Source: a virus
Lineage: Duplodnaviria; Heunggongvirae; Uroviricota; Caudoviricetes
IMG/VR virus record: IMGVR_UViG_2713896908_000012
Location: 1-36,503 of that record
DNA length: 36,503 nucleotides
Reading direction: 5' to 3' (one strand)
Shown here one piece after another: positions 1 through 36,503 of the stretch. The notes beneath the pieces were generated by a model. The model did no database searches. It was not told the origin of the DNA and worked only from the letters and a program-made list of their open reading frames with translations. How positions within the stretch are numbered: position 1 is the stretch's first letter; each line of letters starts with the position of its first letter. A program made the position numbers and the translations under genes.

Positions 1-303
1 GTGAATCGCCCCCCGGCAGACCAGCCACCACGGCAAATCACTCTGCACCTGCAGCCGCCTGTCGGCCTCACTCAGCCAGGACAAACCACCGGGGTGGCTG
101 TGGACCAGCGCCACAATCTCACCCTGCATTTCTGCCTGCAGCCAGTCCTCCGGCGACAGCCTGAAATAATCCTCCGGCTCACCGGAGATATTCACGCAGG
201 GAAAATATCTGTCCCCCTCCGGCGTTCTCACCACGAAGCCGCACGACTCCGCTGGCGCACATCGCCGGGCATGCGCCAGAATCGCTGATTCTGTTTCTGT
301 CAT
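1..303 (-). CDS. K: Tail assembly protein K (JAB/MPN-type), N-terminal part only; gene continues beyond window start
   Basis: Reverse-strand translation from ATG at 303..301 reads MTETESAILAHARRCAPAESCGFVV...ALVHSHPGG..., closely matching lambda gpK as I recall it, including the HSHP metal-binding motif. Start overlaps the L stop region, as in lambda. Confidence 0.8.
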   Translation of the reverse strand, partial: MTETESAILAHARRCAPAESCGFVVRTPEGDRYFPCVNISGEPEDYFRLSPEDWLQAEMQGEIVALVHSHPGGLSWLSEADRRLQVQSDLPWWLVCRGAIH

Positions 304-307
304 GGGT

Positions 308-1006
308 TTACTGAGAAAGTTTGTTAATGGAAAGGAAGCCGCCAAAGTTGCCGACGTTATTGCGAAACTTACAGCCGCTCAGGCATTTGCTGCATTTATC
401 CCGCGTGATATCGGACGTCGGCTGGTCATATTCATCCGCGACAGCCGGACCGTTATAACCGCACTCATCACCGCGATAGGTCCAGGTGCAGGTGTTGGCC
501 AGCATGGTGCGCCCCGGAAAAACAGCGCCGTCCGTTTCCGTCGGTGTGGAGAGCACAAAGGAGGCACTGACCGCGCTCAGTTCGCTGCACTGCTCGATGC
601 GCCAGCGGCTGATCGCCTCCTGCTCCGGGTCTGCGTCGATGTTTCCGTTGACGAAGTTCACCGCATCCAGAAAACGGGCGTAAACCTTACGCCTGACCAC
701 CGTTCCGCCGACCAGACTCTGCAAATCTTCCACCATCCCGGTGATCAGGCCGTGAAGGTTAGACACAGTCAGTGTCGGACGGGCAGCACTACCCTTGCCG
801 TTCAGTTCAAATCCCGTCCCCTGAATTGGATAGGCCTGATACTGCCGCCCCTGCCAGGTGACTGGTTCGCCTTTTTCGTTCTGCTCATTACAGAAAAAAT
901 AACGCTCTCCGCCGACCTCTGTCAGATCGACTTCCCAGAGCACGACCAGCGCGGATTGCTCCGCTTTTGTACACTCATTCAGTGTTTCCTGCCGGATATC
1001 CTGCAT
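308..1006 (-). CDS. L: Minor tail protein L
   Basis: 232-aa ORF, same length as lambda gpL; conserved C-terminal cysteine cluster (CSKCLSGCKF); located between M and K as in lambda. Confidence 0.9.
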   Translation of the reverse strand: MQDIRQETLNECTKAEQSALVVLWEVDLTEVGGERYFFCNEQNEKGEPVTWQGRQYQAYPIQGTGFELNGKGSAARPTLTVSNLHGLITGMVEDLQSLVGGTVVRRKVYARFLDAVNFVNGNIDADPEQEAISRWRIEQCSELSAVSASFVLSTPTETDGAVFPGRTMLANTCTWTYRGDECGYNGPAVADEYDQPTSDITRDKCSKCLSGCKFRNNVGNFGGFLSINKLSQ

Positions 1007-1338
1007 CAGATCACCACTTCATCAAACTGACACGAAAAATCGGTATAGGTGATATGTTCTGTAGCTGACCACGTTCGACACACCACTCTGATTTTTCTGT
1101 TAACACCCGGTGGACGCCAAAAAAAAGATTTATAGCCTTCATGCCGTGCTAAAAAATTTTCGAATGAATCACGTTCATTCGCCTCAACCTTGAAATCACA
1201 GGTGAAAACACGTAGAGAATGATTAAGTCCATTTGGACTTCGTTGCTCATAACCATCGCCAAATCTTACAGTTTTTATCGATGGTTTATTTTCTGTTTTC
1301 ATTCCATCCTCTGGTAACCAGTGGAATTCTTCAGCCAC
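1006..1338 (-). CDS. M: Minor tail protein M
   Basis: 110-aa ORF immediately downstream of the tape measure gene with stop/start overlap; size and position match lambda gpM. Confidence 0.8.
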
Positions 1339-34951: not shown

Positions 34952-35050
34952 GTTGCATTGTATTCAAATTAAAAATTCATAGCTGATTATTAATAATCAA
35001 CGCCGGGCGTCAATTTCTGTCTAATATTGTCGCCCGCCAGAGGTGATGCG

Positions 35051-35266
35051 ATGGCACAAGTGATCTTTAATGAAGAGTGGATGGTTGAATACGGTCTGAT
35101 GCTTCGTACTGGTCTGGGGGCCAGACAAATTGAAGCATATCGCCAGAACTGTTGGGTGGAAGGCCTCCACTTCAAACGAGTATCTCCTTTAGGTAAGCCA
35201 GACAGCAAGCGAGGGATTATCTGGTACAACTATCCGAAGATAAATCAGTTTATCAAAGACTCATAA
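35051..35266 (+). CDS. xis: Excisionase-like protein
   Basis: 71-aa ORF from ATG 35051 ([44 protein letters not shown]...) immediately upstream of int, stop adjacent to the int start. Confidence 0.7.
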
Positions 35267-35267
35267 T

Positions 35268-36503
35268 ATGTCTAAATTACCAACAGGTGTCGAGATTCGA
35301 GGTAAATACATTCGCATCTGGTTCATGTTTCGAGGGAAACGATGTCGGGAAACATTGAAAGGCTGGGAGGTTACTAACAGTAACATTAAAAAGGCCGGGA
35401 GTTTAAGAGCATTGATAGTTCACGAAATAAATTCCGGCGAGTTCGAGTATTTAAGACGTTTTCCCCAGTCCAACACCGGGGCAAAAATGGTGACAACGAG
35501 GGTCATAAAAACATTCGGGGAACTTTGTGATATCTGGACAAAAATTAAAGAGACAGAGTTAACAACAAACACAATGAAGAAAACAAAATCACAATTAAAA
35601 ACCCTCAGGATAATCATTTGCGAGAGTACCCCAATATCACATATTCGTTATAGCGATATCTTAAGCTACCGAAATGAACTGCTGCATGGAGAAACGCTTT
35701 ACCTGGATAATCCAAGAGCCAACAAAAAAGGAAGAACCGTGCGCACAGTTGATAACTATATCGCCCTGCTATGTTCGTTGTTACGTTTTGCGTATCAGTC
35801 GGGATTTATATCAACCAAACCATTTGAAGGAGTAAAAAAATTACAGCGAAACAGAATAAAGCCTGATCCGTTATCTAAAACAGAATTCAATGCATTAATG
35901 GAAAGAGAAAAAGGACAGAGTCAAAACTTGTGGAAATTTGCTGTTTACTCCGGGCTTCGTCACGGGGAACTGGCAGCCCTGGCGTGGGAGGATGTGGATT
36001 TCGAGAAGGGAATTGTGAATGTCAGAAGAAACCTGACGATACTTGATATGTTCGGTCCTCCAAAAACAAATGCCGGGATCCGAACGGTAACATTACTGCA
36101 GCCTGCTCTTGAAGCACTGAAGGAGCAATACAAACTGACCGGACATTATCGCAAAAGCGAAATCACCTTTTATCATCGGGAGTATGGCAGAACCGAAAAG
36201 CAAAAACTGCATTTTGTTTTCATGCCCAGGATGTGTAACGGAAAACAGAAACCTTATTACTCGGTAAGCAGTTTGGGGGCGAGATGGAATACAGCAGTAA
36301 AACGTGCTGGTATTCGCCGCCGTAATCCGTACCATACGCGACATACTTTTGCCTGTTGGCTGTTGACGGCAGGAGCGAACCCGGCATTTATAGCCAGCCA
36401 GATGGGGCATGAAACTGCGCAGATGGTGTATGAAATTTACGGTATGTGGATTGATGACATGAACGACGAACAGGTAGCCATGTTGAATGCGCGGTTATCG
36501 TAG
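35268..36503 (+). CDS. int: Tyrosine-type integrase, full length
   Basis: 411-aa ORF ending at the window edge with a stop codon; C-terminal catalytic region with conserved R...HxxR...Y context (NPYHTRHTFACWLL...MGHETAQMVYEIYGMW). Confidence 0.9.
   Translation: MSKLPTGVEIRGKYIRIWFMFRGKRCRETLKGWEVTNSNIKKAGSLRALIVHEINSGEFEYLRRFPQSNTGAKMVTTRVIKTFGELCDIWTKIKETELTTNTMKKTKSQLKTLRIIICESTPISHIRYSDILSYRNELLHGETLYLDNPRANKKGRTVRTVDNYIALLCSLLRFAYQSGFISTKPFEGVKKLQRNRIKPDPLSKTEFNALMEREKGQSQNLWKFAVYSGLRHGELAALAWEDVDFEKGIVNVRRNLTILDMFGPPKTNAGIRTVTLLQPALEALKEQYKLTGHYRKSEITFYHREYGRTEKQKLHFVFMPRMCNGKQKPYYSVSSLGARWNTAVKRAGIRRRNPYHTRHTFACWLLTAGANPAFIASQMGHETAQMVYEIYGMWIDDMNDEQVAMLNARLS

Follow-up and report, generated by a model that had tools for sequence, protein, structure and literature searches.

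A probable Rac-family lambdoid prophage with intact-looking late genes at the ttcA locus of Escherichia albertii

We analysed a 36,503-nucleotide stretch of viral DNA, IMG/VR record IMGVR_UViG_2713896908_000012 (“the window”). Very probably, it covers ~36.5 kb of a Rac-family prophage whose full length would be about 50 kb, a temperate lambdoid siphovirus that occupies the 5ʹ end of ttcA in the chromosome of Escherichia albertii. Its genes follow the lambdoid order of int-xis, RecET recombination, kil, immunity, replication, nin, Q, lysis, terminase, head and tail. Pfam and PHROG family searches of the window open reading frames (ORFs) covered all of these modules, and the ORF map divides into a minus-strand block from 1 to ~27400 and a plus-strand block at 27498-36503. 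All ORFs look intact. Even so, the window covers a large part of the prophage rather than the whole element. Its right edge is the stop codon of int, and its left edge cuts the tail gene K at position 1; I, J, lom, stf, tfa and both att cores lie outside. Hence, the term “intact prophage” used in a preliminary description of this DNA is apt for the appearance of the ORFs but not for the extent of the window. No insertion sequence elements or tRNA genes were found in the window.

The insertion locus is the Rac locus, the 5ʹ end of ttcA. The exact integrase protein is found on contigs in which ttcA lies 51 nt downstream, followed by dbpA, zntB, dgcM and smrA. The source contig, BJWU01000132.1 (GCA_008326725.1), is 100% identical to window positions 25268-36503. 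The chromosomal DNA beside the prophage on this contig shares 99.4% identity with the E. albertii type strain but only ~85% with E. coli, which identifies E. albertii as the host. The 26-bp Rac att core, which exactly bounds the Rac prophage of E. coli K-12, also bounds a 51.8-kb relative in E. coli MEI003. On the source contig, the int-proximal core is found at the ttcA 5ʹ end, 77-102 nt beyond the end of the window, with 24 of its 26 bases identical to K-12. We found no copy of the att core inside the window.

Membership of the Rac family is supported by a tblastn comparison of the K-12 MG1655 Rac proteins with the window (identities are for amino acids). The matches, to 17 K-12 Rac proteins, are collinear and range from 64 to 99% identity. 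The integrase IntR (35268-36503, plus strand) and the excisionase XisR (35051-35266, plus strand) are 97.1% and 98.6% identical to their K-12 counterparts. The remaining matches are to RcbA (93%), RalR (88%), RacC (97%), YdaE (93%), KilR (92%), YdaF (86%), YdaG (91%), YdaT (95%), YdaV (96%), YdaW (96% over 151 amino acids), the C-terminal part of YdaU (84%), RecE (64% over the N-terminal and middle parts), YnaK (91%), YdaY (94%) and residues 1-312 of YnaA (95%, window 4540-3605). The early-left gene order of Rac is kept: xis, rcbA, ralR/RalA, recT, recE, racC, ydaE, kilR, ydaF, ydaG. The Rac-like early architecture recognized in the preliminary description is therefore confirmed, with the same IntR/XisR pair and with int beside ttcA. 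The early genes it named are in the expected places, and recT (33459-34511), which it did not list, is also present.

Could the element instead be of the Qin (DicA/DicB) type, as was also suggested? Its repressor resembles DicA distantly (28.7% identity, E 2e-14), YdfA is 80% identical to its YdaF-like protein, and its Hok is HokD; the likeness to Qin goes no further. The integrase, the excisionase and the insertion site are all those of Rac, and the element is not at the Qin site. DicF was not detected with Rfam, no dicB-like gene was found among the scanned ORFs, and DicC gave no significant match (E 5.3). The collinearity of 17 Rac proteins and the insertion site refute a Qin-type element, which we consider extremely improbable.

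The immunity region differs from that of K-12 Rac. Neither RacR nor YdaS matches the window, so that of the earlier label “DicA/RacR-like” for the repressor only the distant likeness to DicA stands. Immunity swapping is normal within lambdoid families. For this reason, we regard the element as a heteroimmune member of the Rac family rather than as one excluded from it by the lack of RacR and YdaS. Window positions 26742-28210 are 97.6% identical to the immunity region of the O157:H7 Rac-like prophage (Sp10/CP-933R type), which occupies the same ttcA site and encodes the same 139-amino-acid repressor, 80-amino-acid Cro-like protein and YdaT. The long RecE and the 350-amino-acid RecT are also shared with Sp10/CP-933R, of which Sp10 is the representative in strain Sakai, and the early-left arms are 91.5% identical. 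Consistent with this, recE and recT are of the O157/MEI003 allele type, with the same gene sizes in O157, and not the K-12 alleles; K-12 RecT has no match in the window. The 96-bp intergenic region between the repressor and cro genes contains candidate operators, TTGTGTT(A/T)TAT. In an E. albertii relative with the same integrase (locus L006, 5525-9276), the C-terminus of RecE and RecT are replaced by a Red-like cassette of Gam, RecT and YqaJ, which we read as an illustration of module swapping within the Rac family.

The comparison with K-12 Rac proposed in the preliminary description was also informative for the late genes, which in K-12 are remnants. These are collinear with window positions 16957-17254 and 3606-5364, at 88.6% and 94.1% nucleotide identity, respectively. 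K-12 ynaK corresponds to the 5ʹ end of a 259-amino-acid ParB-like gene, ydaY to a stump of the tail assembly chaperone gene, ynaA (tmpR) to the first 312 codons of the 1069-amino-acid tape-measure gene, and ydaW to a truncated DUF1627 gene. The alignments show that the late remnants of K-12 Rac arose by deletion from genes still found at full length in this element. The K-12 deletion of ~11.6 kb is equivalent to window positions 5364-16957, and removed the TAGT glycosyltransferase, terminase, portal, head and tail tube genes. We considered ydaY as a possible remnant of the TAGT gene, but rejected this since ydaY is a tail chaperone (Pfam Phage_YdaY). K-12 Rac (23 kb, at ttcA) shares the insertion site and att core family with the window element, but has no nin region, Q, holin or endolysin, all of which are present here, and lacks everything from the middle of the tape-measure gene to J. 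The two elements also differ in their RacR/YdaS immunity alleles, and in their alleles of RecT and of the C-terminal part of RecE. Conversely, K-12 Rac carries trkG, sieB and IS5, which are absent from the window element. There is no trkG between the genes for Rz and the ParB-like protein (17210-17496), whereas trkG is at that place in K-12 Rac, in E. coli MEI003 and in the record SPF_0923 described below, with a truncated ynaK alongside it in K-12 and MEI003. Hence, trkG is probably a later insertion in the Rac lineage. In place of sieB there is a 120-amino-acid ORF, orf120 (28522-28884, plus strand), with PHROG hits only, and ~560 bp without a convincing gene separate orf120 from kilR (region 28522-29245).

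The late genes of the element appear well preserved. All 21 of 21 late proteins, from the ParB-like protein to K, align over the full length of the proteins of a relative deposited as “Salmonella phage SPF_0923” (ON032529.1), with the exception of the tail assembly chaperone, which is 183 amino acids long here and is annotated as 149 amino acids in the relative. This difference in length is near a putative frameshift site: a slippery heptamer, A AAA AAG, is found at 5026-5020, and the -1 frame is open down to 4705, which suggests a programmed frameshift of the G/GT type. The overlapping stop and start codons remarked on previously are real (e.g. at 1006, 6900/6903, 7664/7667, 20524/20527, 20814 and 27159/27162). 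In comparison with the relative, the ratio of nonsynonymous to synonymous substitution (dN/dS) is 0.11 for the late genes overall, at a synonymous divergence (pS) of 0.30, and 0.035-0.04 for the coat, portal and TerL genes, with 0.035 for coat. Such low ratios show that the late genes were under strong, phage-type purifying selection until recently. The family matches and the full-length alignments bear out the earlier statement that the element keeps intact-looking Q, lysis, terminase, head and tail genes. An 87-bp difference between the TerL genes of the window and MEI003 was considered as a possible defect of the window copy, and was rejected because it is MEI003 that has a tandem duplication and an HNH insertion. 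In MEI003 (locus L001, 22942-25338), an oppositely oriented HNH endonuclease gene of 1 kb splits the 5ʹ-proximal part of TerL, which also carries the 87-bp tandem duplication; the arrangement resembles a homing-type insertion.

The late region was previously described as fully lambdoid. This holds for the tail, which is lambda-like, but the packaging and head genes form a P22-coat/Mu-F/T4-terminase type of module rather than that of lambda. The genes that follow are all on the minus strand. The small terminase subunit TerS (14224-15306, 360 amino acids) belongs to Pfam Terminase_2. The large subunit TerL (12942-14243, 433 amino acids, ATG start) matches Terminase_6N (2-213 of 215) and Terminase_6C (1-154 of 155), and is 97.5% identical over all 433 amino acids to TerL of SPF_0923. 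Downstream are genes for a portal protein (11533-12939, Pfam DUF4055), a Mu-F-like minor head protein (10437-11552, by Pfam) and a DUF6651 protein (9568-10404, by Pfam) that, given its position, is probably the scaffold. The major capsid protein (8329-9468, 379 amino acids; Pfam P22_CoatProtein, E 5.9e-13) is 96.8% identical over its full length to the SPF_0923 homologue. Based on the terminase families, packaging is probably headful. Four small head-tail joining or completion genes (6900-8287) have full-length matches in SPF_0923. The tail module consists of genes for a terminator (6511-6903, Pfam Phage_tail_terminator_5), a tube protein (5522-6484, Pfam Phage_tube_2), the G chaperone (4911-5462, 183 amino acids; Pfam Phage_YdaY on the same protein in locus L010), the tape measure (1331-4540, 1069 amino acids; Pfam TMP_2, TMP_4 and Tape_meas_lam_C), and the minor tail proteins M (1006-1338) and L (308-1006), with Pfam Phage_min_tail and Phage_tail_L, respectively, matched on identical or near-identical proteins. 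The first 101 codons of K (1-303), whose translation begins MTETESAILAHARRC, are 94% identical to K of SPF_0923. In near-identical loci, K is 247 amino acids long, with Prok-JAB and NLPC_P60 domains. The overall gene order is that of lambda, and lambda homologues are found for G/GT, the C-terminal domain of the tape measure, M, L, K, I, J and Lom. The S-R-Rz/Rz1 logic of lysis is likewise the same. In contrast to lambda, the element has no CI-type cleavable repressor and no N, has RecET in place of Red and YdaU with a DnaC-like loader in place of O/P, uses a Q-like protein of the DUF1133 family, and has non-lambda terminase, portal and coat proteins.

How might such an element complete a lytic cycle? 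We propose that the 139-amino-acid XRE-type repressor silences the divergent cro-like/YdaT/YdaU/YdaV operon and the leftward kilR-recET-xis-int operon. As this repressor lacks an autocleavage domain, release from repression would be spontaneous or would depend on some signal that acts otherwise than through cleavage stimulated by RecA. IntR and XisR would then excise the element between the 26-bp cores in and beside ttcA; their K-12 counterparts are excision-proficient (PMC4632033). YdaU and the DnaC-like loader YdaV would start replication, and the Q-like DUF1133 protein would turn on the late operon. The Terminase_2 small subunit and the T4-type TerL would package DNA, probably by a headful mechanism, into capsids with the P22 coat fold. 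These would be fitted with tails of the lambda type (tube, G/GT, tape measure, M, L, K, I and J), and the holin, endolysin and Rz/Rz1 would lyse the cell.

It had been suggested that the element may be inducible, and a classic SOS-inducible lambdoid prophage would respond to mitomycin C or ultraviolet light with repressor cleavage and a lytic burst. Many lambdoid prophages act in this way, and all the downstream lytic functions are present. However, the repressor contains a helix-turn-helix domain only (Pfam HTH_3), with no Peptidase_S24 or other autocleavage domain found in the Pfam scan. There is no LexA box (CTGT-N8-ACAG) in the window, and no antirepressor domain (Ant, KilA-C or ORF6N) was found among the scanned ORFs. 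The repressor of Sp10, whose immunity region is 97.6% identical, also lacks the peptidase motif, and Asadulghani et al. blame this for the missing response of Sp10 to mitomycin C (PMC2669165). Circular Sp10 DNA was seen without mitomycin C, indicating spontaneous excision, and there was less of it with the drug (PMC2669165). Thus, classical induction by SOS or mitomycin C is unlikely on these features, and we consider it very unlikely that the element is an SOS-inducible prophage of the classic kind. Given the helix-turn-helix-only repressor, the lack of a LexA box and an antirepressor, and the precedent of Sp10, a mitomycin C test would likely be negative even with a living phage.

Several observations weigh against the reading of the element as a functional temperate phage. 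Intact ORFs are compatible with regulatory or missense defects, and the estimated ~50 kb may exceed the headful capacity of this capsid. Sp10 offers a precedent in favour, as it was packaged, moved to K-12 at low frequency and integrated at the Rac attR (PMC2669165), but no visible particles were obtained from K-12 Sp10 lysogens (PMC2669165). Among the relatives that we found, none with this head and tail module is a phage proven by virions. The SPF_0923 record is labelled “complete genome”, but was rejected as proof of a virion because it carries the host genes uspF, ompN and nifJ, and also sitABCD; the vB_EcoS-...R records were rejected because they come from a prophage-prediction study. The SPF_0923 record is without all the early genes, and is a mis-delimited fragment of a prophage at the Rac locus. 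Lastly, the source contig, by its coordinates, ends ~481 bp left of the window start, which leaves I, J, the genes for the fibres and the far att site without a link to the present copy. These observations raise the possibility of a “grounded”, recently inactivated prophage that is gene-complete but makes no infectious particles, at most excises, and is kept for its cargo: RecET, KilR, RalR/RalA and hok/sok, and in relatives NleG effectors and an omptin. The lack of particles and the low-frequency transfer of Sp10, which has the same immunity region, fit such a state, as do the absence of a virion-derived relative of the late module among those we found and the position of the left arm of the source copy beyond the contig end. 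Moreover, relatives decay: in MEI003, TerL is split by HNH and ynaK is truncated, and K-12 Rac has lost most of its late genes. On the other hand, all window ORFs are of full length, neither the frameshift site nor the overlaps between genes have been lost, and the dN/dS of 0.035-0.04 for coat, portal and TerL means that any inactivation would be very recent. We therefore regard recent inactivation as a real possibility, albeit an unlikely one, and favour a temperate prophage of the Rac family.

The missing left arm of this Rac-family prophage can be modelled on relatives. Locus L010, which is 99.8% identical over the 11 kb shared with the window, has intact K, I, J (1165 amino acids), Lom, a 1106-amino-acid Stf, Tfa and NleG. 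Locus L023, an E. albertii-derived viral contig, encodes a 100%-identical Tfa, followed by NleG, an alpha/beta-hydrolase and an omptin. Its att core is 4.4 kb past tfa, matches the ttcA copy at 25 of 26 bases, and is a direct repeat of it in the same orientation. Joined in this way, the pieces suggest an element of about 50 kb. The L023 core abuts an older, diverged 3ʹ stump of a Rac-type int and more NleG genes (L023 10744-13929), and the E. albertii type strain also has an int stump and NleG genes beside ttcA (L020 2332-3444). Hence, full-length Rac-like prophages appear to sit in tandem with an older remnant in E. albertii.

Where else is this combination of modules found? Sp10 and CP-933R at ttcA are full-size Rac-like prophages (PMC4632033; PMC2669165), published as gene-complete for morphogenesis. 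Despite the shared early region, the O157 element differs from the one described here in having a 564-nt TerS gene, a 1662-nt TerL gene, an HK97-like capsid, a lysis region with tRNA genes and extra morons, and another host species. The reverse is seen for the Rac-like prophage of MEI003, which has the same late module (98% nucleotide identity over window 1-14156) and lies, att-bounded and 51.8 kb long, at the ttcA-uspF site with type III secretion effector cargo at its tail end, but which has trkG and the truncated ynaK, tRNA genes, RacR-type immunity and sieB. Predicted prophages of the ST131 type (vB_EcoS-666R9 and others) have the same late module at ~91%. “Full-sized Rac-like prophages” with LT-II toxins were described by Jobling (PMC5917428). 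One of them, the LT-IIa prophage deposited in GenBank as Escherichia phage Rac-SA53, resembles the window element in int, recE, recT and the region of the repressor, with 55% of the early 11.5 kb covered at 92% identity. Most of its late region is unrelated (16% coverage), and enterotoxin genes are present. At least 80% of the first 25 kb of the window is found at a single place in 164 of 5426 complete E. coli genomes, and the same threshold is reached for its last 11.5 kb in 76. Our literature search found no paper on this particular mosaic of Sp10-type immunity and RecET with the late module ancestral to K-12 Rac, in E. albertii.

Of all parts of the window, only a pair of genes directly upstream of the terminase has some potential to surprise. 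The first encodes the 259-amino-acid ParB-like protein (16431-17210, minus strand; Pfam ParB_N), which has a GHGR box and an N-domain that resembles the N-terminal part of ParB-methyltransferase fusions (PADLOC MTase_II, E 1e-36); this resemblance was the only result of a PADLOC defence scan of the accessory genes. The adjoining gene, which overlaps it in relatives, encodes a TAGT/GREB1-related glycosyltransferase (15497-16429, minus strand; Pfam TAGT, E 1.5e-35) with a DDD motif and at least 8000 homologues; a small ORF (15310-15519, minus strand) completes the accessory module upstream of the terminase. The dN/dS of the pair is 0.07-0.12. In three distant relatives (L103, L104 and L105; 62-75% identical), the order ParB-like, TAGT, terminase is kept, while the modules that follow differ: Terminase_2/Phage_portal_3, GpA/Phage_portal_2, and Terminase_4 with TerL_ATPase/Phage_portal. 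A 2026 study reported that phage ParB-like proteins activate thymine dioxygenases, and that the commonest neighbours of such dioxygenases are glycosyltransferases, ParB proteins and terminases (PMC13229309). Of the phage 5mYOX (TET/JBP) hypermodification module, the TAGT and ParB-like components are thus present here, but no TET/JBP dioxygenase was found among the scanned ORFs of the window, nor within 5 kb of the pair in the three distant relatives. A sequence search found no solved structure for TAGT, and we found nothing direct in the literature on ParB with TAGT. The pair might be an autonomous ParB-guided module that modifies DNA or is linked to packaging, and that works without a TET/JBP dioxygenase; we put this forward as a doubtful idea. 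If it were true, temperate coliphages of the Rac type would have an unrecognised means of glycosylating DNA or of countering restriction, with the enigmatic K-12 gene ynaK as its relic.

The remaining genes complete the modules described above. On the plus strand, the 411-amino-acid IntR has Pfam domains Arm-DNA-bind_2 and Phage_integrase, and the excisionase belongs to DUF1233. These are preceded by the rcbA-like gene (34763-34951, Pfam DUF1187), the ralR (lar) toxin gene (34576-34770, Pfam Lar_restr_allev), recT (33459-34511, 350 amino acids, Pfam RecT) and recE (from 30301, 1048 amino acids, Pfam Exonuc_VIII and DUF3799). The small RNA RalA is encoded on the minus strand, antisense to the rcbA-like gene (34769-34947; Rfam RalA, 203 bits). 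In the early-left part at 28219-30200, where Pfam DUF1391 was also matched, ydaG (28219-28353), ydaF (28365-28520) and racC (29925-30200), all on the plus strand, were located by tblastn with the K-12 proteins; kilR (29459-29680) and ydaE (29680-29850), also on the plus strand, were assigned from the KilR and YdaE families matched on identical proteins of a relative (locus L004). The repressor gene occupies 27498-27917 on the plus strand.

On the minus strand, the early-right operon (25114-27401) consists of genes for the 80-amino-acid Cro-like helix-turn-helix protein (27159-27401, Pfam HTH_3), YdaT (26740-27162, Pfam YdaT_toxin), the replication initiator-like YdaU (25867-26661) and YdaV (25114-25860); Pfam IstB_IS21 and Bac_DnaA were matched in this operon, and its genes are also called in locus L004. 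The nin-like region, on the same strand, encodes a DUF1627 protein that is full-length YdaW (24330-25142), a DUF977/Ren-like protein (23906-24379), a PHROG 1372 protein (23405-23716) and a DUF551 protein (22400-23275). Next to it on the minus strand is a hok/sok type I toxin-antitoxin locus (21976-22278; Rfam sok, 119 bits), with a Hok that is 100% identical to HokD of K-12 Qin. Genes for a DUF1367 protein (20814-21413, by Pfam) and a YbcO nuclease-like protein (20524-20814, Pfam YbcO), both on the minus strand, precede that for the Q-like late regulator (19985-20527, minus strand), which matches PHROG 753 (anti-termination, E 1e-79) and Pfam DUF1133 and Phage_antitermQ. The lysis genes, also on the minus strand, encode a holin (18515-18874, PHROGs; Pfam Phage_holin_3_1), an endolysin (18035-18511, PHROGs), Rz (17659-18051) and an embedded Rz1 lipoprotein (within 17496-17840), the last two matching Rz-like spanins in PHROGs. 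In nucleotide sequence, they share 90.5% identity with those of phage SfV. A DUF2441 gene on the opposite strand (19093-19632, plus; 179 amino acids, Pfam E 1.4e-6) lies in a low-GC patch (0.41) that separates the gene for the Q-like regulator from that for the holin, and looks like a moron; its product has no match in PADLOC or NCBIfam.

What does this element mean for the Rac family? The idea of a full-size Rac-like prophage is already published (PMC5917428, PMC4632033, PMC2669165). The element is an ordinary though well-preserved example, full-size Rac-like prophages having been described since 2009-2016, and current understanding is unchanged. Nonetheless, it is useful as a reference that displays the gene-complete form of the phage that decayed into K-12 Rac. 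The full-length parents of the K-12 fragments ynaK, ydaY, ynaA and ydaW can now be named, and trkG and sieB are probably later additions or swaps. Since relatives carry NleG genes at the tail end, a Rac-type phage, if still mobile, would be one route for the spread of type III effectors in E. albertii.

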